A DNA stretch of 8,349 nucleotides from a virus (taxonomy: Monodnaviria > Loebvirae > Hofneiviricota > Faserviricetes > Tubulavirales > Inoviridae): the IMG/VR virus record IMGVR_UViG_2718218102_000001; one strand, given 5' to 3'. The translations under genes and the position numbers were made by a program. Shown here in pieces: positions 70 to 8,349 of the stretch. Below the pieces are notes generated by a model. It did not search any database. It worked only from the letters and a program-made list of their open reading frames with translations, and was not told the DNA's origin. Positions within the stretch are counted from its first letter, which is position 1. Every line of letters begins with the position of its first letter.

Positions 70-378
70 ATGGATTCTTATGGGATTTTATCTGCTCTGG
101 CAGAACGAACGATTACAGCGGAAGAAGCAAAAACAATGACACTTGCAGCCAGAAGTTCTTCGGCTCAGGTAAATGAAGCATCACTTGCTCTGTTACTGAT
201 TGATAATACTCTGGATGCGATCAAAGCAGCTGCCAGTGAAGGGAAAGGATACACTTTACTTCCTTCTTATGAGATTTCTTTAAAAGCCATTGATTTAGCA
301 GAAGAATTTTTAAGGAAACAATGCGGCTATGTTATTGATAACCAGAATGGCGTAAGGACGGTCTATTGGTTTATATGA
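70..378 (+). CDS. hypothetical protein (102 aa), left flank of the phage
   Basis: ATG at 70 follows in-frame stops at 55-57 and 64-66; ends TGA 376-378 followed directly by TAA. GGGG 9 nt upstream as a weak RBS. No family recognised. Confidence 0.45.
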   Translation: MDSYGILSALAERTITAEEAKTMTLAARSSSAQVNEASLALLLIDNTLDAIKAAASEGKGYTLLPSYEISLKAIDLAEEFLRKQCGYVIDNQNGVRTVYWFI

Positions 379-495: not shown

Positions 496-729
496 ATGCA
501 ATTTTTCACATCCAGCGATACTGTAATGTTATGTGCGAAGACCTGCGATCGCTGTGGTCGCCATGCGAAGACGGTGGTAGATGACATTGAGTTCAATGAG
601 TTTCTGTCTGTTAATCACTTAGCTGGATACGGTTCAATTTTTGGTGACAGTAATCGCTTAAAACTGGATTTATGCCAACATTGCCTGAAAGACGTCCTGG
701 GCCAGTGGATTACGGTCTGTGACCAATGA
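496..729 (+). CDS. hypothetical small protein with two CxxC pairs (77 aa), possible zinc-binding
   Basis: ATG at 496 preceded by GAGGAG with about 7 nt spacing. Protein contains CDRC and CQHC about 40 residues apart. Stop TGA 727-729. Confidence 0.5.
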   Translation: MQFFTSSDTVMLCAKTCDRCGRHAKTVVDDIEFNEFLSVNHLAGYGSIFGDSNRLKLDLCQHCLKDVLGQWITVCDQ

Positions 730-765: not shown

Positions 766-863
766 TTGGTGCGCATAATGTTCGACTCGTTATGTTGAAA
801 AGGCCGCTGCGATAATTGAATCCCGCAGCGGCCTCTTTAGCATAACGTCATTGTGCGAACCAA
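766..863. other. dif-like Xer recombination site pair in inverted orientation around a palindrome (candidate folded attP or prophage left junction)
   Basis: 768-778 GGTGCGCATAA equals the E. coli dif XerC arm, and with TG at 779-780 gives a 13-nt exact match to dif. 790-800 TTATGTTGAAA matches the dif XerD arm TTATGTTAAAT at 9/11. The spacer 779-789 is 11 nt, not 6. 801-811 and 824-834 form a perfect 11-bp inverted repeat with a 12-nt loop. On the minus strand 861-835 reads GGTTCGCACAA-TGACG-TTATGCTAAAG, a second dif-like site. In single-stranded form 768-778 pairs with 851-861 (9/11) and 790-800 with 835-845 (8/11), leaving an asymmetric 11 vs 5 nt internal loop. Confidence 0.6.
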
Positions 864-872
864 GTTTTGAAT

Positions 873-1205
873 CTAATAATCTGAATCCATAACTTCGACC
901 ATTTCATCAACATTTTGTTGGAATTGATAGTTTAAATGATTCCAGCCAAAATCACCGGGTTCAAATATATAAGTGTTCCCTTTCTTCTTAGATGTTAGTT
1001 CAAAATAATACTCTGTTGAGCTATTGGCGTTTAAAGTGATGTCATACCAACCAAGATATTTAACTTCCAGCACAGCCATTAGCTGGCTATTGACTTCATT
1101 AAAGACATGCGTCTTACTCATACCAGGGACGGGTTTTCCGTAGATGAAAACCCCATCTTGTGCAGTCCTAACCCTAACCCCATAAACCCTTGATTTTTTT
1201 GCCAT
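873..1205 (-). CDS. hypothetical soluble protein (110 aa), last gene of minus-strand accessory operon
   Basis: ATG is the reverse complement of 1203-1205, stop TAG is the reverse complement of 873-875. Starts 11 nt downstream of the preceding minus-strand gene. The + strand ORFs over this region look like antisense artefacts. Confidence 0.5.
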   Translation of the reverse strand: MAKKSRVYGVRVRTAQDGVFIYGKPVPGMSKTHVFNEVNSQLMAVLEVKYLGWYDITLNANSSTEYYFELTSKKKGNTYIFEPGDFGWNHLNYQFQQNVDEMVEVMDSDY

Positions 1206-1216
1206 TTCAACACTCT

Positions 1217-1570
1217 CTATTTTGATAAGTCATTTCTCATGGACTCGATTAGTTTATTAAAAGCATTGTTTCTTTCTTCTCTCGGACCATCGTTTGTATC
1301 AACTATTTTTTGTGCATAATGTGTGACTTGTTTTGAACCAAACAATGAGCAATGTGTTTGCCACAAGGCATATTCTTTAGATGCTTCGTCCGATGGTGAG
1401 ACCGCTGATTTATGGATTGATGACAATAATCCTAAGTACGCTTTTCTTTTTTCTTCATATAGGCGCTCTTCTTTTTTAGACTTTTTATTTAAAAGGTTTG
1501 TAATGGTTGAATTCAACATCGTCCCTATGCCTAATCCCCCAACAATTCCTAATATCATGTTGTAATCCAT
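1217..1570 (-). CDS. hypothetical membrane-anchored protein (about 117 aa)
   Basis: Start chosen at the ATG giving MDYNMILGIVGGLGIG..., 7 nt after the stop of the upstream gene. The track ORF extends to 1630 but would overlap that gene by 53 nt. Predicted N-terminal transmembrane helix followed by a charged, probably helical domain. No clear RBS, so the start is uncertain. Confidence 0.45.
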   Translation of the reverse strand: MDYNMILGIVGGLGIGTMLNSTITNLLNKKSKKEERLYEEKRKAYLGLLSSIHKSAVSPSDEASKEYALWQTHCSLFGSKQVTHYAQKIVDTNDGPREERNNAFNKLIESMRNDLSK

Positions 1571-1577
1571 AATATTA

Positions 1578-2000
1578 TTACCAGTAATATGAGTTTCTTC
1601 TGTGCCACCAATAAAGCAGGCCATATCCAACGATAAGAATCCCTAAAAACATAAGAGACATTCCCCAGCCAGTTCCATACCACGAAATCATATCATAGAA
1701 AACTAGCCCGCCCATTTCACGAACTCCGGCAGCTTCTTTAAGAATTGGTTTGAATACCGGAATCAGAAAGGCGATAGCCAGCGGTGTACCCCATCGAACA
1801 AGGCCGGTTTCCATTTTGATCCCGAAAAAGATCCCGCCACCGACAGCAAGAAGCCAAAAAATCAGGTTTGGCGCTGTTTCCAGAGCTGTTTGCCATTCAA
1901 CATCGAATGTCTTCATCAGCCAGAGAACGATGACTAAGGAGAAAATGGCTACACCACCAAAAACTAGTTCGACGCTACTTATTTCATTATTTCTGTTCAT
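1578..2000 (-). CDS. hypothetical small integral membrane protein (140 aa, about 4 predicted TM helices)
   Basis: ATG is the reverse complement of 1998-2000, stop TAA is the reverse complement of 1578-1580. Four hydrophobic segments and a Trp/Tyr-rich C-terminus. AAGGA lies immediately upstream with very short spacing. Confidence 0.55.
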   Translation of the reverse strand: MNRNNEISSVELVFGGVAIFSLVIVLWLMKTFDVEWQTALETAPNLIFWLLAVGGGIFFGIKMETGLVRWGTPLAIAFLIPVFKPILKEAAGVREMGGLVFYDMISWYGTGWGMSLMFLGILIVGYGLLYWWHRRNSYYW

Positions 2001-2041
2001 TCCTTCGATCCTTTTATTCGTTCAAAAATCGCGCAATTTAA

Positions 2042-2072
2042 AAACGTGCAGTGTAGGTAATACTGCACGTTT
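2042..2072 (-). terminator. candidate rho-independent terminator or attenuator on the minus strand, between the regulator gene and the accessory operon
   Basis: Perfect 11-bp inverted repeat (2042-2052 with 2062-2072), 9-nt loop. On the minus strand the stem is followed by UUUUUAAAUU. Lies 17 nt downstream of the stop of the 2089..2271 gene. Confidence 0.5.
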
Positions 2073-2088
2073 GTACCATTCGTGGTAC

Positions 2089-2271
2089 TTAATCCTTTTG
2101 TTTGGCAGACATGAGATCTTCTGCTGCATCTTTAGAGTAGTTATCAATCAGATAACCTAAAATCTCTGTCCATGTAATTGTTTTTCCTAGTTTTACACTG
2201 GCATTTATAGCCAGTCGTTCTAGTTTCATTTTTCTTTCTTCCGTCACGTTATAAGTCGTGCGCTTTGCCAT
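2089..2271 (-). CDS. putative ribbon-helix-helix (Arc/MetJ/CopG-like) DNA-binding regulator (60 aa), divergent from gII
   Basis: MAKRTTYNVTEERKMKLERLAINASVKLGKTITWTEILGYLIDNY fits a beta-strand, helix, G-x-T turn, helix pattern. Placement is divergent from the replication gene, as for repressors of other filamentous prophages (for example RstR of CTXphi, by analogy only). Confidence 0.5.
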   Translation of the reverse strand: MAKRTTYNVTEERKMKLERLAINASVKLGKTITWTEILGYLIDNYSKDAAEDLMSAKQKD

Positions 2272-2440
2272 TTTTTACGCTCGTTCAATGCAATATTTGA
2301 AGTGAGTATACATGCTCATGAACTCATATCATCCAAGCCTCTTGAACTCACTAGCTCACTGATGTAATGTTAAAACACTAATGAACTACTGAACTCATGT
2401 GTTAGTAAGTCGTCATTTTTGCAATTTTGAGGATTTATTC
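2272..2440. promoter_or_regulatory. divergent promoter/operator region with iterated motifs; possible (+) strand origin
   Basis: Four copies of TGAACT(C/A) at 2319, 2343, 2382 and 2390. CTCACT is repeated at 2347 and 2355. Candidate sigma70 promoter for gII: TTGAAC (2342-2347), 17 nt, TAATGT (2365-2370). GAGGA at 2429-2433 lies 7 nt before GTG 2441. Confidence 0.4.
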
Positions 2441-3493
2441 GTGATCGATTGGCTTACCGGGATTTTCCCTTGCACACACAAACCGCTTCCGGCGGGGAGT
2501 GTTGTCAGCGTTGATGCTGACGGTGCAATTGAGTGGGAAACCGTTAAGCGACTGACTGTTCGCGGCTCGCATGAAGCAACGATGAAAGTACGATCGATAG
2601 GATCTAATGGCGAAGGTAAAGCGACACATTTGTACATTGATGGTAATCCGTCCAAGTTTTTGCAGGGGCATTCTGTTGTTGGGTCGGATGATATACAAGG
2701 GCTCATGTTGACGGTCTATGCCAGGATTTTATCCTTATTGAATATTCCTCATGATTTAGCGTCTTATAAAGCTGTTATAGCAGGTCAGTATAAAATTTCA
2801 CGTGTTGACATTAATTACATGTATTCATTATCTACGCTAGAAAATGTCAGATCATGGCTTTATGCCGCCGAATTTAAAGCTAAAACACGCCATGGTCGCG
2901 CATGTGGGAAAGGCGGTACAGTTTATTTAGGTAAAAACTCCCGTCGATGGAGTCTGAAATTTTATTCAAAATATGATGAACACGTTTCGGGTAAAAAAGG
3001 GCACCAGATAGCCGAAGATTTTGTACGAGCCGGGTTACTGGACTGGACGAAAGATAAATTACGTATTGAATTAACATTAAGAACAACTGAGCTTATTGAT
3101 TTAAATTTAACGCTTGGCGCTAACTGGAATATGAAAACACCACGTCAATTATTCTCTGAATATGTAGGGAGAATAGAAATGAATCAGAATGCTATTTTAA
3201 GTGATGAAAAAATAACGAAACTGCCAAGAAAAATACAGTCAACTTATTTACTTTGGAAACAAGGGGCTAACATGAAAGAAATGTTACCTCATAACACTTT
3301 TTATCGCCATAGAAGAGAATTGCTTTCGTTCGGTATCGATATTAATTTCTATTGTGATTCACCAGACTCTAATAACGTTGTTCCGCTAATAAGAACGCTG
3401 GAAGCCAAGCCAGTGGAAATCCCCTTATGGATTTATGAGAAAGGTTTTATTTTCGATTACAACCGTATTTCGCACGCCAGTAGCTGGCATTAA
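2441..3493 (+). CDS. gII: replication initiation (rolling-circle nickase) protein, Ff gene II-like (about 350 aa)
   Basis: N-terminus (M)IDWLTG resembles Ff pII MIDMLVL; KFLQGHSVVG resembles KVLQGHNVFG; C-terminal NNVVPLIR resembles NNVVPLVR (M13 recalled from memory). GTG 2441 chosen over GTG 2399 because of the GAGGA RBS. Stop TAA 3491-3493. Confidence 0.75.
   Translation: MIDWLTGIFPCTHKPLPAGSVVSVDADGAIEWETVKRLTVRGSHEATMKVRSIGSNGEGKATHLYIDGNPSKFLQGHSVVGSDDIQGLMLTVYARILSLLNIPHDLASYKAVIAGQYKISRVDINYMYSLSTLENVRSWLYAAEFKAKTRHGRACGKGGTVYLGKNSRRWSLKFYSKYDEHVSGKKGHQIAEDFVRAGLLDWTKDKLRIELTLRTTELIDLNLTLGANWNMKTPRQLFSEYVGRIEMNQNAILSDEKITKLPRKIQSTYLLWKQGANMKEMLPHNTFYRHRRELLSFGIDINFYCDSPDSNNVVPLIRTLEAKPVEIPLWIYEKGFIFDYNRISHASSWH
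3179..3493 (+). CDS. gX: gene X-like product from an in-frame internal start within gII (104 aa)
   Basis: In-frame ATG at 3179 preceded by AGGGAG with 7 nt spacing. Context IEMNQNAILSDEK aligns with the Ff pX start region DSMNIYDDSAVLD. Confidence 0.5.
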   Translation: MNQNAILSDEKITKLPRKIQSTYLLWKQGANMKEMLPHNTFYRHRRELLSFGIDINFYCDSPDSNNVVPLIRTLEAKPVEIPLWIYEKGFIFDYNRISHASSWH

Positions 3494-3504
3494 AGGAAAG
3501 TAAT

Positions 3505-3822
3505 ATGTCTAATTATGGTCTTTTCGTTAAGGGTAAAATGTTGGGAGCCCGCCAACGTAATAAAGTTAATGGTCAGGGCTATTATAATGAAATTGGTATT
3601 GGCCTTGAAATACCTGATGGTTTTGGTGGTACAAAGCAGGATCAAATTATTATTCGAGTTTCTCAGACTCTCGTTAACGCAGGTCTAATGAACCAGGCGA
3701 ATGCTTTCATTGGGAAATTAGTTCAAATTCCTGTCTATGTCCGTGCGTGGTCAATGGAGGGTAGGGAAGGTGTAACTTATAATGTTTCTTCCGATGGTGG
3801 CATCGCAGAGATCAAAGGTTAA
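3505..3822 (+). CDS. putative ssDNA-binding protein in the gene V position (105 aa)
   Basis: ATG 3505 with AGGAA RBS at 6 nt spacing, 11 nt after the gII stop and 2 nt before gVII. Assignment is by position only; I see no obvious similarity to Ff pV. Confidence 0.5.
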   Translation: MSNYGLFVKGKMLGARQRNKVNGQGYYNEIGIGLEIPDGFGGTKQDQIIIRVSQTLVNAGLMNQANAFIGKLVQIPVYVRAWSMEGREGVTYNVSSDGGIAEIKG

Positions 3823-3824
3823 AT

Positions 3825-3911
3825 ATGGACGATGTTATTCAAATTTTGATAGCGTCTGGCATCGTTATTTCTTTTGGCCTCGGCGCGATTACTGCGGGGG
3901 TCTTTCGTTAA
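3825..3911 (+). CDS. gVII: minor coat protein pVII-like (28 aa)
   Basis: Not in the ORF track (too short). Hand translation gives MDDVIQILIASGIVISFGLGAITAGVFR, hydrophobic with a GxxxAG motif like Ff pVII. Stop TAA 3909-3911 overlaps the next ATG (TAATG). Confidence 0.6.
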   Translation: MDDVIQILIASGIVISFGLGAITAGVFR

Positions 3912-4006
3912 TGTATATCGTTTATTTCTTCGGGGCTTATACCTTTGGTTTTGCCCTTTTCTATGCGGTCGGTTCATTTAAATCATTTTCTGACCGATTA
4001 ATGTAA
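3911..4006 (+). CDS. gIX: minor coat protein pIX-like (31 aa)
   Basis: ATG 3911 overlaps the gVII stop. Product MYIVYFFGAYTFGFALFYAVGSFKSFSDRLM is hydrophobic and ends RLM, like Ff pIX. It corresponds to the C-terminal part of track ORF 3782..4006. Confidence 0.6.
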   Translation: MYIVYFFGAYTFGFALFYAVGSFKSFSDRLM

Positions 4007-4025
4007 CCTTAATGGAGTTATTCCT

Positions 4026-4268
4026 ATGAAAATTCTGTCTACTGTTAAATATAAAGTTGCTCTGGCTTCAACTGCGCTTTTTGTTTCTGCAAGTTCTTTT
4101 GCGGCTGAAGGCGCTACAGGTGGTACTGATTATGCAGGTCAGGCAATGGATGCTTTGTTGACTCAGGCAAATGATCTCATTGGTAAAGTATGGCCTGTTG
4201 TTGTGGCTGTGGTTGGCGCTGGGCTTGCCATTCGTATTTTCAAAAAATTCTCTTCAAAAGCGGTTTGA
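4026..4268 (+). CDS. gVIII: major coat protein pVIII precursor (80 aa)
   Basis: GGAG RBS 8 nt upstream. Signal peptide ending SFA|AEG, acidic N-terminus, hydrophobic core, basic C-terminus [12 protein letters not shown] typical of Ff/IKe-class major coat proteins. Confidence 0.9.
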
Positions 4269-4314: not shown

Positions 4315-5640
4315 ATGAAAAGGAAAATATTAATTCTTTCCGCTGTCCTCATTTCTCCTTTTTCACATGCTGAGTCATGGGAAAGCATTACTAAATCCAC
4401 TTATCAAAGCTCTGCCTACGCTGAAAGTAAGCAAATAACCAATCAGGATGGCTCTAAGTCAACGGTTTACTATATTGATGCTGCTATGCAGGCCTCCGCT
4501 TGTCAGGGTGCTAAATCCAGTGCTCAGAGTGTATTTACTCAGGTTAAACCAACTTATGAGGGTATCTGGCCTGATTCTGAATTCCGTCTTGTTTTTACTG
4601 GTGATTGTACTTACAGCGATTCACCAGGGCAGAAGGATAAATATTGGTCTTTAACGGCTTATATTGTTGGTGATATTCAGCGTTCTGTTCCTGATGAAAA
4701 ACCTACTGACCCGACACCAGAAGAAATTTGTGAAGCGAAGCCGCCAGAAGAAGGTGTATTTAATAATGTTGATTCATATGATGGTGGTCGTTATATCTAC
4801 TATAACGGCTGTGAATATGAGGCTACTGGTGTCATTGTTTGTCAGGGTGATGGTACTGTTTGCGCTGCAACATGGAAGCCTACAGGTACTGTAGCTGACC
4901 CCTCTGATAAACCCTCAACCCCCCAAAATGGTGGTGGTGAGTCTGGCGGTGGTGAGTCTGGCGGTGGTGAGTCTGGCGGTGGTGAGTCCGGTGGCGGTAG
5001 TTCTGGCGGTGGTGAGTCCGGTGGCGGTAGTTCTGGCGGTGGTGAGTCCGGTGGCGGTAGTTCTGGCGGTGGTGAGTCCGGTGGCGGTAGTTCTGGCGGT
5101 GGCTTTAGTGGTTCCAGTCTTTCTAAAGGTGATATTCAGTCTGCTATCGAAGGTGCTTCACCCAAAATAGCCAGCGATATTCATGATAAATTAACGGAGA
5201 AAGACACTTCATCAGATGATAAAAAAAATGCCGATGAACAAACTAGGAATAATATAAATCGTCTTGACGATTCCATTAACAATCTTACGCGGGGGGCTGG
5301 CCGTTTTGCTGACCCTTCAGGTGGTGATTCTCGTTATGGAAAGGGCGACTCTGAATTAGATGGCGCTTCTACTTTGGCTGATTCTGAATTGGGAATTGAA
5401 AAGGATTCTCACGGTGCTTTATGGGAAGCATTTTTAAATAAAGGTGCTATGCTGCCTAATTTACCCAATGGTAACGGCTGCTCTGATTTTATTATTTTTC
5501 CCGGAGAGGTTTATCAGATTGATATTGGTTGCGATAAATTACTGACTATTAAAGATGTTCTTTCATGGGTTTTTTATTGCCTTACGTTCTGGTATGTCTT
5601 TACTTCTTTAACTTCATTGCTTCGCAAAGGGGGTGAGTGA
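4315..5640 (+). CDS. gIII: minor coat / adsorption protein pIII (about 441 aa)
   Basis: Start set at the in-frame ATG 4315 giving signal peptide [19 protein letters not shown]; the track ORF begins upstream inside gVIII. Cys-rich N-terminal domain, long Gly-rich linker, and a C-terminal anchor resembling the M13 pIII C-terminus (CDK...YVF...LRxK). Stop TGA 5638-5640 overlaps the gVI ATG. Confidence 0.9.
4936..5100 (+). repeat. in-frame tandem repeat, 11 copies of a 15-nt unit, encoding the Gly-rich pIII linker
   Basis: GGTGAGTCTGGCGGT x3 (4936-4980), then a 30-nt unit GGTGAGTCCGGTGGCGGTAGTTCTGGCGGT x4 (4981-5100). Encodes alternating GGGES and GGGSS. Confidence 0.9.
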
Positions 5641-5981
5641 TGCCTTTATTATTAGGTATTCCTGCATTGTTGCGTTTTCTTATTGGTCTTGTTCCTTTGT
5701 TTATTGGCTATGTGGCGAGTTTTTTAGCTCGACTTGCTACCAGAACAGGATTAATCGCCTTTGCATTGGTCGCATTAATTACAACAACTGTTACGCTTTT
5801 AATGCAGTACCTTGCTGAGGTCATGTATAACGGTTTACCTGCTGATTTCTCCCATTTAATGGCGTCTGTATTGCCTGACCATTTTCAGGCGTGTGTTAAC
5901 GTTATTATGGTTACTCGTATCAGTGTTTTTGTTTTCGATTTAAAACAAAAATTTCTTGATTATGCAAACAGGGTGATTTAA
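5640..5981 (+). CDS. gVI: minor coat protein pVI (113 aa)
   Basis: [17 protein letters not shown]... resembles M13 pVI MPVLLGIPLLLRFLG... (recalled). ATG 5640 overlaps the gIII stop (TGATG); the track used GTG 5637. Stop TAA 5979-5981 abuts the gI ATG. Confidence 0.85.
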   Translation: MPLLLGIPALLRFLIGLVPLFIGYVASFLARLATRTGLIAFALVALITTTVTLLMQYLAEVMYNGLPADFSHLMASVLPDHFQACVNVIMVTRISVFVFDLKQKFLDYANRVI

Positions 5982-7076
5982 ATGGCGGTTCATGTAGTAA
6001 CAGGCAAATTAGGCTCAGGCAAGACACTTGTTAGTGTTTCCAGAATACAGGAAAGACTTGCTAAGGGTTGTCCTGTTGCCACTAATCTTGATCTTAAATT
6101 GCATAATATGCCTATGGTTGGGCGTTATGCGAAAAAAACGCGCGTTATTCGCATTCCTGACAAGCCTTCATTAAATGATTTACTTGCTATTGGTATTGGG
6201 AATACATCTTACGATGAATCCCGTAATGGCCTCCTTGTACTTGATGAATGTGGTACTTGGTTTAATTCCCGCTCATGGGGTGATAAAGACAGACAACCTG
6301 TTATTGACTGGTTTTTACATGCCAGAAAATTAGGCTGGGATATTATATTTTTGATTCAGGATATTTCGATAATGGATAAGCAAGCTCGTCTGGCGCTTGC
6401 TGAGCATGTTGTTTATTGTCGCCGTTCAGATAAATTAAACATTCCTTTTGTTGGCTCCATTATGAATTTGGTTTCAGGGGCGCGATTTTCTTTACCAAAG
6501 GTACACTTTGGCATTGTCAAATATGGTGATAACGTTAATTCAATTACTGTTGATAAATGGATATACACCGGAAAATCATTATATTCCGCCTACAATACAA
6601 AACAGGTTTTTACTGATAACTATCCGCATGGTGCTTATTCGCTTTTGCCACCATTTATCACGCACGGTCAATTTTCTGTTCACAGAGGATTTAATTATTA
6701 TATGCGCCTCACGAAAATTTATTTTCGCAAATCGAACCGTCTTATATTAATGCTTTCTTTTTTGGCGCTGGGGCTTGCGCTTGGTTTCTGGCTCCAGTCT
6801 GGAAAGAATGTTGATGAAATCTCCGCTATTAAATCTGCTTATGCTGAACAGGCGAGGGCGGTAACGCCTGATTCGTCCAGTGACTTACCCCGACTTTCTA
6901 TTAATTCTTTTTCACAACTTGGCTTTGACGTTTCCGTTACGTTTGTTGATGCAAAAGGTACGAAATATCAGTATTTTGATTTGATTAAAGATGGTTATTC
7001 CGTTGATATTAAAGATGCCTGTCGTGTTGTTATTAGAAAAGGCCGTTATTTACAGACTGTTATCTGTCAGGAGTAA
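5982..7076 (+). CDS. gI: assembly ATPase pI (Zot-like), 364 aa
   Basis: Walker A motif GKLGSGKT at residues 8-15. Long colinear similarity to M13 pI (MAVYFVTGKLGSGKTLVSV..., LLVLDECGTWFN..., FLHARKLGWDIIFL...; recalled). C-terminal membrane segment. Confidence 0.9.
   Translation: MAVHVVTGKLGSGKTLVSVSRIQERLAKGCPVATNLDLKLHNMPMVGRYAKKTRVIRIPDKPSLNDLLAIGIGNTSYDESRNGLLVLDECGTWFNSRSWGDKDRQPVIDWFLHARKLGWDIIFLIQDISIMDKQARLALAEHVVYCRRSDKLNIPFVGSIMNLVSGARFSLPKVHFGIVKYGDNVNSITVDKWIYTGKSLYSAYNTKQVFTDNYPHGAYSLLPPFITHGQFSVHRGFNYYMRLTKIYFRKSNRLILMLSFLALGLALGFWLQSGKNVDEISAIKSAYAEQARAVTPDSSSDLPRLSINSFSQLGFDVSVTFVDAKGTKYQYFDLIKDGYSVDIKDACRVVIRKGRYLQTVICQE
6702..7076 (+). CDS. gXI: pXI-like product from an in-frame internal start within gI (124 aa)
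   Basis: In-frame ATG at 6702 (pI residue 241, the same position as the M13 gene XI start), just before the TM segment LILMLSFLALGLALGFW. AGAGGA lies 12 nt upstream. Confidence 0.5.
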   Translation: MRLTKIYFRKSNRLILMLSFLALGLALGFWLQSGKNVDEISAIKSAYAEQARAVTPDSSSDLPRLSINSFSQLGFDVSVTFVDAKGTKYQYFDLIKDGYSVDIKDACRVVIRKGRYLQTVICQE

Positions 7077-7083
7077 TATTATT

Positions 7084-8349
7084 ATGCGCTCTGTTATTGT
7101 TGCTTTTTTATTTGCCTGTTCATTCTGCGTTTCTGCTGAAACTGTTAATTTAAACAATTCATCTGTTCGCTCATTTGTTCAGTGGTATTCTTCAAAAACT
7201 GGCAAGCCTGTTATTGTTAATCCTGATATTAAAGGAAACGTAACCGTATTTAATGCTGATGTTAATCCAACAAATATTGATGATTTCTTTAAGTCTGTTC
7301 TGAATGCTAACGGTTTTGTCATGCTTTCTGGCAATCCTGCGGTAGTCTCTTTGCCGTCTAAATTACCTTCACAGATGGTTTCGGATTCCGATGATTCTGA
7401 TAACCAGTCTTATGATACTTTTCCTTCTGAGCCATCTTACCAGCCAGTACCTGTGGCGCTTACGGTCAGAAATTTTAAGCTGACAAAAGTTAGATCGTCC
7501 GATGTTCAGCAACTGATTAAAATTTATCTTGATTCTAATGGTGGTGGTAATGTCGTGGATTATCCAGGCAATAACTCGCTGATTGTTTCTGCGCCTGACG
7601 AGCTGCTGCCGGTTCTGTCCGATTTTATCAATTCTGTGGATGTTGCCCGCGATCAGGTTCTCATTCAGTCGCTGATGTTTGAAACCAGCTTGTCTGATGG
7701 CGTTGATTTATCGTTTGCGGCAGGTTCTGCATCCGGTCATAAGGTTGCGGGGGGCTTTAATACTTCTGCACTGGGTAGCGCTCTTTCTACGGCGGGCGGT
7801 TCTTTTGGTATTTTTGATGGTAACGTGTTGGCGCTGTCTCTGCGTGCTGTCCAGAGTAATTCACGCTCTAAGGTGATTTCAACGCCGCGTATTCTTACTC
7901 AGTCTGGTCAGACTGGTTACATTTCCGTAGGTAAGAATGTGCCGTTTATCACCGGAAAGGTAACGGGCGAATCTGCCGGGGTAAATAATCCGTTTCAGAC
8001 TATCGAGCGTCATGATGTTGGCGTTTCTCTCAAGGTAACGCCTGTTGTCATGGGTAACGGGCAACTAGTTCTGACTATCGACACTCGCGCTGATTCAATC
8101 AGCAATGATGATCAGGCATCCGATATTATTACTAATCAGCGCCAGATTCAGACGACAGTCCAGATTAAGGATGGTCAGACGTTGTTATTGGGGGGGCTTA
8201 TCGATTCATCGTTTAGCAATGCTGAGCGTTCAGTTCCAGTTATAAGTAAAATTCCTCTTATAGGCTGGATTTTCAGTAGCAAGGCAGACAGCAATGAACA
8301 GCGTATTATGTATATTTTGCTTACAGCACATATCATTCGTCCACTTTGA
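7084..8349 (+). CDS. gIV: outer-membrane secretin pIV (about 421 aa)
   Basis: Start set at ATG 7084 giving signal peptide MRSVIVAFLFACSFCVSA|ET; the track ORF starts upstream inside gI. Strong similarity to M13 pIV throughout (NVPFITGKVTGESAGVNNPFQTIER, DGQTLLLGGL, SKIPLIGWIFSS). Stop TGA 8347-8349 is the window end. Confidence 0.9.
   Translation: MRSVIVAFLFACSFCVSAETVNLNNSSVRSFVQWYSSKTGKPVIVNPDIKGNVTVFNADVNPTNIDDFFKSVLNANGFVMLSGNPAVVSLPSKLPSQMVSDSDDSDNQSYDTFPSEPSYQPVPVALTVRNFKLTKVRSSDVQQLIKIYLDSNGGGNVVDYPGNNSLIVSAPDELLPVLSDFINSVDVARDQVLIQSLMFETSLSDGVDLSFAAGSASGHKVAGGFNTSALGSALSTAGGSFGIFDGNVLALSLRAVQSNSRSKVISTPRILTQSGQTGYISVGKNVPFITGKVTGESAGVNNPFQTIERHDVGVSLKVTPVVMGNGQLVLTIDTRADSISNDDQASDIITNQRQIQTTVQIKDGQTLLLGGLIDSSFSNAERSVPVISKIPLIGWIFSSKADSNEQRIMYILLTAHIIRPL

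Follow-up and report, generated by a model that had tools for sequence, protein, structure and literature searches.

Exchange of gene modules among filamentous phages, termed "module evolution", was reportedly described for phage I2-2 by Stassen et al. in 1992. A modular split of genes II and V was subsequently stated for the UPΦ phages (Shapiro and Putonti, 2020; PMC7307601), in a study that also describes I2-2 as a non-integrating phage without a dif site. For YpfΦ, the filamentous phage of Yersinia pestis, disruption of the gene II homologue YPO2274 abolishes phage production (PMC4266046), and for the Ff phages the active-site role and chemistry of Tyr-197 of gpII have been reported (PMC5405960).

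Here we analysed an 8,349 nt stretch of inovirus DNA (IMG/VR record IMGVR_UViG_2718218102_000001), referred to as the window. Positions 2441–3822 comprise genes II, X, and V, the cassette for DNA replication in a filamentous E. coli prophage of the UPΦ type (Table 1), and the region 2272–3822 is 100% identical in prophages of E. coli F11, ECONIH2, and other strains. Our explanation for the window as a whole, to which we assign a probability of roughly 0.88, is that it represents a UPΦ-type, dif-integrating (pro)phage of Enterobacteriaceae, in which an I2-2/YpfΦ-type replication module is combined with IKe/I2-2-like (Lineavirus) coat and assembly genes. The UPΦ assignment was made by the published criteria (PMC7307601) and the layout of E. 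coli prophages rather than by the sequence of UPΦ901.

Table 1. Features of the replication cassette and its flanks (window positions).
Feature	Coordinates	Strand	Remarks
Hydrophobic protein gene, 140 aa	1578–2000	-	Forms one conserved block with the candidate origin hairpin (1570–2099)
Candidate plus-strand origin hairpin	2039–2075	+	TAAAAACGTGCAGT-GTAGGTAAT-ACTGCACGTTTGTA
Putative regulator gene, 60 aa	2089–2271	-	Divergent from gene II; within the swappable regulator cassette 2100–2441
Divergent control region	2272–2440		Between the regulator gene and gene II
Shine-Dalgarno sequence GAGGA	2429–2433	+	7 nt 5´ of the gene II GTG; read from the sequence
Gene II	2441–3493	+	350-aa rolling-circle replication initiator, G2P/rep_II_X family; GTG start
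Gene X candidate	3179–3493	+	Internal in-frame ATG (Met247 of pII); 104 aa, the pII C-terminal domain
Gene V-position protein gene	3505–3822	+	105 aa; member of PF17426; SSB-like OB fold by structure prediction
Right-hand module junction	3823–3829		Between the gene V stop and the gene VII start at 3825

In BLASTP comparisons with IKe, the window pVII, pIX, pVIII, pIII N-terminal part, pVI, pI, and pIV were 70, 57, 60, 55, 52, 66, and 71% identical, respectively, and the range across pVII to pIV against IKe and I2-2 was 52–73%. In contrast, pII was only ~23% identical to its Ff and IKe counterparts and pV gave no match. Both proteins instead resemble those of other phages: pII and pV are 56% (over 344 aa) and 40% identical to those of I2-2, and 86 and 93% identical to those of YpfΦ. 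An identity matrix of five or six taxa placed pII and pV in the groups window with the YpfΦ-type element, I2-2 with the inovirus record L018, and IKe with M13, whereas pI and pIV were grouped as window, I2-2, IKe, and M13 on one side and the YpfΦ-type element with L018 on the other, such that the replication genes and the assembly genes are incongruent. Both structural backbones carry both pII alleles among the IMG/VR contigs and genomes. At the DNA level, similarity to the YpfΦ-type element starts at 2442, in the gene II start codon, and stops at 3829, 7 nt beyond the gene V stop; the right end of this similarity falls at 3782–3829 in other contigs, and similarity to the structural DNA of I2-2 and to IKe begins at 3849 and 3857, respectively. 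By sequence comparison, the replication module thus is of the I2-2/YpfΦ type, not the Ff/IKe type, and its lineage differs sharply from that of the coat and assembly genes. These contrasts bear out the suggestion, made in a preliminary description of the sequence, of modular mosaicism with a replication and regulation block from another lineage. The same description called the structural module Ff-like; it is IKe/I2-2-like (Lineavirus) and not Ff-like in particular. The swap is real but ordinary, since the same exchange has already been published for I2-2 (1992) and for UPΦ/YpfΦ (2020).

The gene II product was recognized over its whole length by two Pfam profiles, PF05144 (Phage_CRI; profile positions 2–231 of 232, 232.7 bits against a cut-off of 21.7, E = 6e-69) and PF05155 (G2P_X_C; positions 1–86 of 88, 101.1 bits against a cut-off of 25, E = 5e-29). 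It also matched the NCBIfam model TIGR01629 (rep_II_X) with 253.5 bits (cut-off 29) and PHROG 702, "replication protein" (E = 1e-118), while a comparison of pII with the PDB returned chance-level matches only. At 350 codons, the protein compares with 410 aa for pII of M13, 421 aa for IKe, and 344 aa for I2-2, in agreement with the lengths initially estimated for the window and Ff proteins. The difference of ~60–70 residues from Ff and IKe is due to about nine scattered small deletions, with no domain lost. An alignment of 11 pII sequences contains 27 invariant residues, distributed from residue 1 to residue 328, with central motifs SP-K-LQGH, R-D, SR..Y-K..E, and R-E. Among them is Tyr175 (codon 2963–2965), which aligns with Tyr197 of M13, is invariant in 11/11 sequences, and is the predicted catalytic residue. 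The earlier impression that only short N- and C-terminal motifs are common to this protein and Ff pII therefore has to be given up, since both Pfam domains are matched end to end and the invariant residues occur throughout; to judge from these alignments, pII has diverged strongly from Ff pII but is homologous to it along its whole length.

An internal start for gene X was found within gene II, and a pX product is predicted from it. The candidate ATG is preceded by GGGAG at 3167–3171, and a Met aligns with Met247 in I2-2 as well as in the YpfΦ-type element, L018, and the related sequence L012. In I2-2, gene X is annotated as starting at exactly the matching residue (position 3829 of I2-2), and the candidate pX is 46% identical to I2-2 pX. 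PHROG 17464 covers residues 247–346 of pII, the stretch that also is spanned by the G2P_X_C domain.

The ORF in the gene V position is preceded by a Shine-Dalgarno sequence (AGGA), and its product matched PF17426 (Putative_G5P, the I2-2 gene V family) over the complete profile (positions 1–108 of 108; 171.2 bits, cut-off 25). All family members (40/40) matched the profile; 38 of these are distant representatives, and one is the gene V protein of I2-2. A PF17426 gene lies directly downstream of gene II in the window, I2-2, the YpfΦ-type element, L018, and other inovirus records. Pfam yielded nothing on pV beyond PF17426, with no SSB-family match at E ≤ 1; searches of the PDB gave no match at E ≤ 10 with the single sequence and only sub-threshold matches with a 40-sequence profile, for example PrgE with E = 0.17. 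As the preliminary description had remarked, the protein has no visible resemblance to Ff pV: BLASTP gave no match to pV of M13 or IKe, although these two are 44% identical to each other, and hhalign of PF17426 (40 sequences) against an alignment of Ff-type gene V proteins (gVp, the helix-destabilising proteins of M13, IKe, PEar, and Xanthomonas phages; seven sequences) returned a probability of 0.3%.

Ff gVp is a β-barrel protein of the OB type. The structural model of the window protein, predicted from a shallow alignment of 12 closely related sequences, is a confident OB fold with the topology β1-β2-β3-α-β4-β5. Nearly all of its top structural matches are ssDNA-binding SSB, PriB, and mtSSB domains, and Ff gVp is absent from the top 50–60. 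In this model, the pV fold is closer to the cellular SSB/PriB domains than to Ff gVp. Placing pV within the SSB family was considered and rejected, since at the level of sequence there was no SSB Pfam match; the likeness is one of fold. The conserved aromatic and basic positions F40, W82, Y92, R16, and K71 are of a kind typical of ssDNA-binding OB surfaces, and the predicted fold and the gene position together suggest that pV is an ssDNA-binding and packaging protein. The literature searched held no report of ssDNA binding by any PF17426 protein.

The PF17426 and Ff gVp families possibly have a distant common origin. In another scheme, to which we give somewhat less than even odds, PF17426 is an SSB/PriB-like OB protein that was recruited independently of Ff gVp, and the TAATA-loop hairpin origin together with rep_II_X (with or without gene V) constitutes a plasmid-type rolling-circle replicon. 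This replicon would be swapped repeatedly among inovirus backbones that are unrelated, and its breakpoints would be fixed at the gene II start codon and the gene V/gene VII junction. If independent recruitment is true, filamentous phages acquired a protein for packaging single strands on two or more occasions.

Upstream of gene II, the 60-aa putative regulator matched PHROG 2503 (function unknown) and no Pfam or NCBIfam family. An AF2 model from the single sequence, of moderate confidence, has an extended N-terminus followed by helices, and the protein is possibly of the ribbon-helix-helix type. An unrelated 148-aa HTH gene occupies the same position in the YpfΦ-type element, and in Brenneria alni a Ypf-like backbone carries the 60-aa gene of the window (98%). 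The divergent control region contains three to four direct repeats, CTNNTGAACT(CA), found by a repeat search at 2315, 2339, 2378, and 2386, and we infer that these CTNNTGAACTCA repeats are possible operator sites. A promoter and terminator scan of 1950–4100 gave 3 promoter-like sites compared to 6.3 expected from shuffles. Further to the left, the block 1570–2099 has 83% DNA identity to the YpfΦ-type element; the 140-aa protein encoded there matched PHROG 4174 (function unknown). The adjoining accessory cassette (873–1572) was absent from all 5,426 of the 5,426 complete E. coli genomes searched. A dif-like site with an 11-nt central region is present at 768–800, while no exact E. coli dif was found in the window at ≤3 mismatches, nor at ≤8 substitutions in an ungapped search. 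No Rfam family reached its gathering score anywhere in the window.

Within this conserved block, the hairpin at 2039–2075 is the probable plus-strand origin, with a nick site predicted at T2058^A2059 by analogy with Ff. It consists of a 14-nt inverted repeat (93% complementary; DNA fold energy -13.4 kcal/mol) and is 94% identical to positions 2667–2699 of I2-2, in intergenic DNA that is otherwise unalignable. The hairpin was found on the Rep-coding strand in the YpfΦ-type element, L018, and ~2-kb plasmids of Acinetobacter, E. coli, and Pseudomonas, and all IMG/VR contigs with the motif (32/32) have a pII homologue downstream on the same strand. The exact motif is missing from V. cholerae p42, a related small plasmid, and from Pseudomonas RF. 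The hairpin also aligns with the plus-origin cores of M13 and IKe with a score that was reached by 4–10 of 1000 shuffles, a short and moderately significant likeness; the core common to the hairpin, the annotated viral-strand origin stem-loop of IKe, and the nick-site hairpin of Ff is TAATA-(C/G)TG-(C/G)AC-NN-TTGT.

Several other readings of these data were weighed. Genes II and V might have been inherited vertically from an Ff/IKe-like ancestor, without exchange but with very fast evolution, in line with the remaining homology of pII to Ff pII and with a gene order in the window that is identical to that of Ff and IKe. Between M13 and IKe, however, pII and pV (60 and 44% identical) diverge about as much as pI and pIV (51 and 46%), a baseline very different from the steep drop between pI and pIV on the one hand and pII and pV on the other when the window is compared to IKe. 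The same gene II–gene V pair (86–100% identity) also occurs with the YpfΦ backbone, for which BLAST gave no match between its pI and the window pI, and the quartet of window, YpfΦ, I2-2, and L018 is incongruent between replication and assembly genes. Given the identity matrix and the sharp DNA breakpoints at 2442 and 3829, we rejected fast vertical divergence, which we regard as scarcely credible, in favor of exchange of the replication module. It likewise is very unlikely that gene II starts elsewhere, whether upstream, at the in-frame GTG at 2399 (for a product of 364 aa), or at an ATG further downstream. The mechanically called ORF does begin at 2399, and GTG is a minority start codon among bacteria, but the 2399 codon lacks a Shine-Dalgarno sequence, in contrast to 2441, and sits in non-conserved DNA, as the sequence upstream of 2442 is unrelated in the YpfΦ-type elements. 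The Pfam match opens at the residue encoded at 2441, and all relatives (9/9) begin with M-IDW, from an ATG, at the residue aligned with the window GTG; starting at the first downstream in-frame ATG would cost the invariant N-terminal residues MID...G42. RefSeq/PGAP calls the same 1053-nt CDS in the prophages that are 100% identical over 2272–3822. Based on the position of the Shine-Dalgarno sequence and the aligned starts of the relatives, the alternative starts were rejected, and the GTG at 2441, the start proposed in the preliminary description, was retained.

The 105-aa protein could be a small protein with a different DNA-binding or regulatory function that just happens to sit in the gene V slot, given that no sequence link to Ff gVp and no solved relative were found, that PHROG 1547, which it matches, is labelled "unknown function", and that even the Pfam name is "Putative". 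We consider this improbable: I2-2, YpfΦ, UPΦ, and Pseudomonas inoviruses all conserve its position between genes II and VII, neither I2-2 nor the window has another candidate for the essential gene V function, and both the OB model with its SSB, PriB, and mtSSB matches and the five conserved aromatic and basic residues fit an ssDNA-binding surface. A role as a gene V protein is the reading we prefer. For the hairpin, it is unlikely, though worth keeping in view, that it is only the terminator of the regulator gene and that the true origin lies elsewhere. The 60-aa gene ends 14 nt before the hairpin, and a T-run (TTTTTAAATT) comes after it on the minus strand; the hairpin could instead, or additionally, be an intrinsic terminator of that gene. 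Against a terminator alone, the hairpin is conserved as a sequence, beyond mere structure, in I2-2, YpfΦ, and UPΦ, is retained by ~2-kb plasmids that have no regulator gene, always on the Rep-coding strand, co-occurs with pII without exception in the 32 contigs, and has the TAATA core in common with the IKe and Ff origins. An origin function is preferred here.

We infer a scheme that covers nicking by pII, the function of pX, and the ssDNA-binding and regulatory roles of pV. In the replicative form, pII would nick the plus strand at an origin of its own (most probably the hairpin), join to the 5´ end through Tyr175, and prime rolling-circle synthesis. By analogy with Ff, pX, the separately made C-terminal domain, probably restrains replication. 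The 105-aa protein would be the functional counterpart of Ff pV, coating new plus strands and diverting these from replication into assembly, and possibly represses gene II translation. The cassette, comprising the origin, the swappable regulator gene, genes II/X, and gene V, would recombine between unrelated inovirus backbones, and the same pair of pII and origin would also drive ~2-kb plasmids.

The main value of these results lies in annotation and classification, with the window representing a UPΦ-type prophage with I2-2/YpfΦ-type replication genes; current understanding of filamentous phage biology is unchanged. Because genes II and V move independently of the virion genes, they are unfit for the taxonomic placement of such phages. 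Immunity and replication control seem to be exchanged apart from the replication genes, on the evidence of the GTG start and the swappable regulator cassette. The analysis also provides a testable prediction of the origin and nick site for a module common to the plague-associated YpfΦ, the ExPEC phages CUS-1 and UPΦ, and many tiny plasmids, and flags PF17426 as an uncharacterised and, from the structural model, probably SSB-like ssDNA-binding family.

Among described phages, UPΦ (UPΦ901; PMC7307601) has the same dif-like site, two extra forward genes after gene IV, and reverse-strand accessory ORFs, all of which we found in the window, along with a gene layout identical to that of E. coli prophages. 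As in the window, the UPΦ coat and assembly genes are I2-2/IKe-like (~65–73% identical) and genes II and V are YpfΦ-like (>85% identical), whereas the accessory cassette of the window (873–1572) is a different one. I2-2 (NC_001332) combines the same type of replication module with the same Lineavirus-type structural backbone; its pII, pX, and pV (344, 98, and 108 aa, compared to 350, 104, and 105 aa) are 56, 46, and 40% identical to those of the window, the gene X start falls on the equivalent residue, and I2-2 likewise has the origin-type hairpin. In I2-2, by contrast, gene II starts with ATG, and the homologue of the 60-aa gene carries a frameshift in the record, where it is not annotated.

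YpfΦ of Y. pestis and CUS-1 of E. coli K1 (YPO2274–YPO2275) resemble the window in pII and pV (86 and 93% identical) and have the same origin hairpin with the adjoining 140-aa gene block, but their structural and assembly genes have little or no relationship to those of the window (no match for pI, 27% for pIV), a 148-aa HTH protein takes the place of the 60-aa regulator, and gene II starts with ATG. gpII and gpX of Ff (M13/f1/fd) and IKe belong to the same family (PF05144 with PF05155, TIGR01629) and have three features in common with the window, each predicted for the window here: the catalytic Tyr, a gene X start inside gene II, and a hairpin that bears a TAATA core at the nick site; they differ in the low identity of pII (~23%), the additional 60–70 residues, and the GTG start of the window gene. 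Their gene V protein (PF02303; solved structures) occupies the same genomic slot and is similarly small, yet has no sequence or profile similarity to the window protein, the model of which contains a helix between β3 and β4 like the classical SSB domains. The Reps of the rep_II_X plasmids (pMM1 of P. aeruginosa, ~2-kb plasmids of A. baumannii, and pVCG4.1 of V. cholerae) are 37–41% identical to pII over the full length, closer than Ff pII. These plasmids, which carry neither a gene V homologue nor virion genes, have the same hairpin on the Rep-coding strand, and a relationship between pVCG4.1 and I2-2 has likewise been reported (PMC3399079).

The window is one complete (pro)phage unit of the filamentous type, 8349 nt long. 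Chromosomal prophages of extra-intestinal E. coli (UM146, F11, 16843 and ECONIH2), often tandem and adjoining hipBA, are 97-98.5% identical to it over ~92% of its length, and several are 100% identical across 2272-3822. The layout and identities also agree with those published for the UPΦ phages (PMC7307601). The pII encoded by a Salmonella enterica 'plasmid' (NZ_CP140410.1, 7938 bp) is 98.9% identical to that of the window, and what was deposited here as a plasmid is probably a UPΦ-type phage in its extrachromosomal replicative form. A near-identical phage copy lies on a 25-kb contig (L051, JARKOR010000214.1) in a 'Candidatus Nanosynbacter sp.' MAG bin (pII 98%, pIV 100%, 60-aa protein 100%), and another copy (contig L056) is binned as Aerococcus sp.; in both cases the most likely cause is enterobacterial DNA that contaminated the bins, not a new host. 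A long run of amino-acid repeats in gIII, the glycine-rich linker of pIII, accounts for a local G+C rise and overlapping BLAST pieces at ~4960-5100.

Coordinates of genes and other features in the window
Feature	Coordinates	Strand	Remark
Small gene 1	70-378	+	ORF
Small gene 2	496-729	+	ORF
dif-like site	768-800		
Plasmid-shared element	791-862		~72 nt
Accessory cassette	873-1572		
Minus-strand ORF 1	873-1205	-	110 aa
Minus-strand ORF 2	1217-1630	-	137 aa
Origin block	1570-2099		
Minus-strand ORF 3	1578-2000	-	
Candidate origin hairpin	2039-2075		
Minus-strand ORF 4	2089-2271	-	
Regulator cassette	2100-2441		
Direct repeats	2315-2397		
Imperfect palindrome	2406-2437		
gII	2441-3493	+	
gX	3179-3493	+	
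gV	3505-3822	+	
gVII	3825-3911	+	
gIX	3911-4006	+	
gVIII	4026-4268	+	
gIII	4315-5640	+	
gIII linker repeats	4900-5110		
gVI	5640-5981	+	
gI	5982-7076	+	
gIV	7084-8349	+	

The preliminary description set the limits of the replication genes exactly, from the GTG at 2441 to the end of the gV stop codon at 3822, and rightly noted a short gII product: pII has 350 aa versus 410 in M13 and 421 in IKe (344 in I2-2), the difference from Ff consisting of about nine scattered deletions in the alignment. The GTG start it proposed is well supported by a GAGGA 7 nt upstream, a Pfam match from the same residue and an identical 1053-nt CDS in PGAP; the gX start is likewise directly supported. All nine relatives examined have M-IDW at the aligned start, each with an ATG codon. 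DNA similarity to the YpfΦ-type element starts at 2442, so a different cassette lies upstream and ends with the G of the GTG. The gII Shine-Dalgarno sequence is overlapped by an imperfect palindrome with 19-nt arms of 74% complementarity, which could modulate translation from the GTG or be a repression target. The claim that pII keeps only short N- and C-terminal motifs in common with Ff pII was wrong, as the profiles PF05144 and PF05155 are matched along their whole length and TIGR01629 gives 253 bits. MAFFT alignments contain 27 invariant residues between positions 1 and 328, and place the predicted catalytic Tyr175 opposite M13 Tyr197, the residue to which the 5' end becomes attached on nicking in Ff (PMC5405960). 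Among characterised phages, I2-2 (NC_001332) has replication proteins 56% (pII, over 344 aa), 46% (pX) and 40% (pV) identical to those of the window; YpfΦ of Yersinia pestis is much closer (pII 86%, pV 93%, checked against the NCTC5923 tandem prophage and a 9.6-kb E. coli replicative form).

The 105-aa protein in the gene V position was described as lacking visible likeness to Ff pV, and this was borne out: no BLASTP match to M13 or IKe pV was found, while these two are 44% identical to each other, and profile-profile comparison with the Ff-type gVp family gave a probability of 0.3%. It belongs to PF17426, a small family (a library of 1.8 billion proteins contains 62 representatives at 50% identity) that was the sole family matched by 40/40 members scanned, the annotated I2-2 gene V product among them. 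The AlphaFold2 model (pLDDT 88.4; β1-β2-β3-α-β4-β5) matched bacterial SSBs with Foldseek (E ~1e-5), and a fold search of a viral library returned phage SSBs, including that of Thermus inovirus OH3; Ff gVp was in none of these top lists. Given SSB-type matches without Ff gVp, we therefore treat pV as a predicted OB-fold ssDNA-binding protein that would do the job of Ff pV from outside the Ff gVp family. Membership of the SSB family itself was rejected, the likeness being one of fold only and the sequence-level membership test having failed.

Matches to the I2-2 intergenic region form two short islands. One, 9-38, falls within the annotated I2-2 morphogenetic signal and was assigned from that position to the assembly module. 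The other, 2043-2074 (94% identical to I2-2 2667-2699), lies in a hairpin with a 14-bp stem, TAAAAACGTGCAGT-GTAGGTAAT-ACTGCACGTTTGTA, also present in the YpfΦ-type element, in L018 (a comparison inovirus element) and on ~2-kb plasmids of A. baumannii, E. coli and P. aeruginosa (pMM1) that encode little besides a rep_II_X protein 37-41% identical to the window pII. The hairpin is always on the Rep-coding strand, and its linkage to pII was observed directly in an exact-pattern scan: 32/32 IMG/VR contigs carrying it also encode a homologue of pII, downstream and in the same orientation. It can be aligned to the nick-site hairpin of Ff (GTCCAC-GTTCTTT^AATA-GTGGAC) and to the stem-loop annotated as the IKe viral-strand origin, the three having TAATA-(C/G)TG-(C/G)AC-NN-TTGT in common (score reached by 4-10/1000 shuffles). 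We infer a plus-strand origin at 2039-2075, with a predicted nick at T2058^A2059; possibly the hairpin also, or alternatively, serves as a terminator of the upstream 60-aa gene. Ff biology (PMC5405960, together with established knowledge of gpII, gpX and gpV) suggests that pII would nick the hairpin, become linked to the DNA via Tyr175 and drive rolling-circle synthesis. By the same analogy, pX would moderate replication, and pV would coat plus strands for export and might repress gII translation. Disruption of YPO2274 in YpfΦ abolishes particle production (PMC4266046), which provides genetic support for this mechanism from a close relative.

Modular mosaicism, with a replication block of another lineage, was the main point of the preliminary description and is correct. 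The window and IKe are similar in structural and assembly proteins (pVII 70, pIX 57, pVIII 60, pIII-N 55, pVI 52, pI 66 and pIV 71%; pI 64 and pIV 73% with I2-2), versus 23% for pII and no match for pV; M13 and IKe pII are 60% identical. I2-2 and IKe are split in the same way (structural proteins 69-93%, pII 23%, pV no match). A six-taxon identity matrix was incongruent, grouping {window, YpfΦ}, {I2-2, L018} and {IKe, M13} for replication genes, and {window, I2-2, IKe, M13} and {YpfΦ, L018} for assembly genes. Because the window-YpfΦ and I2-2-L018 replication pairs cross for assembly genes, the pattern requires two or more exchanges. Module exchange is still under way among IMG/VR contigs and genomes: UPΦ-type structural genes carry pII alleles of both ~99% and ~86% identity, and YpfΦ-like structural genes occur with alleles of 91-94% (e.g. 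Brenneria alni). Recurrent breakpoints at ~2085-2100, 2441/2442 and 3782-3829 directly mark the module boundaries.

The regulator cassette, between the origin block and gII, contains the gene for the 60-aa protein, possibly a ribbon-helix-helix, and CTNNTGAACTCA repeats; it is unrelated in YpfΦ, where a 148-aa HTH protein takes this position. Between the divergent 60-aa gene and gII are 3-4 direct repeats CTNNTGAACT(CA), at 2315, 2339, 2378 and 2386, which are possible operator sites. In I2-2, the 'intergenic region' (2700-2920, minus strand) contains an unannotated homologue of the 60-aa putative regulator (43% over 35 aa, E 7e-8). As in the window, this homologue adjoins the conserved hairpin of origin type. 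A frameshift splits it in the deposited sequence, which means either a pseudogene or an error in the 1992 sequencing.

A dif-like site, GGTGCGCATAA-TGTTCGACTCG-TTATGTTGAAA, has a perfect XerC arm, a near-perfect XerD arm and a central region of 11 nt, not 6 nt. Its position, with the second post-gIV gene on one side and the reverse accessory ORFs on the other, is the one expected for attP or a tandem junction. The element directly after it, with a GC-rich hairpin GGCCGCTGCG...CGCAGCGGCC, is ~90% identical to unannotated DNA of about 430 plasmids, mostly conjugative and IncF-type, from E. coli, Klebsiella and Salmonella. One of these plasmids has it directly at the 3' end of an 'STM4504/CBY_0614 family protein' gene, a product name also found beside a UPΦ prophage in E. 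coli NCTC9104; possibly the element is the tail end of a mobile cassette of accessory genes. The two minus-strand ORFs of the accessory cassette had no matches in family searches, and the cassette was absent from 5,426/5,426 complete E. coli genomes searched and 31/32 related IMG/VR contigs; related prophages have other genes there, such as those for a 159-aa protein and an ECs_2282-family zinc-binding protein.

The replication module thus described is real and already known, all of its elements being on record and both the pII and pV families being in Pfam and NCBIfam. Incremental additions are the predicted SSB-like fold of PF17426, the conserved candidate origin hairpin common to tiny plasmids, the precise breakpoints and the evidence of repeated, continuing exchange. 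For I2-2, Stassen et al. in 1992 reportedly proposed that the replication module had been replaced with one from another rolling-circle replicon. Genes II and V are the only ones in which phage UPΦ901 has >85% identity to YpfΦ (Shapiro & Putonti 2020, PMC7307601).
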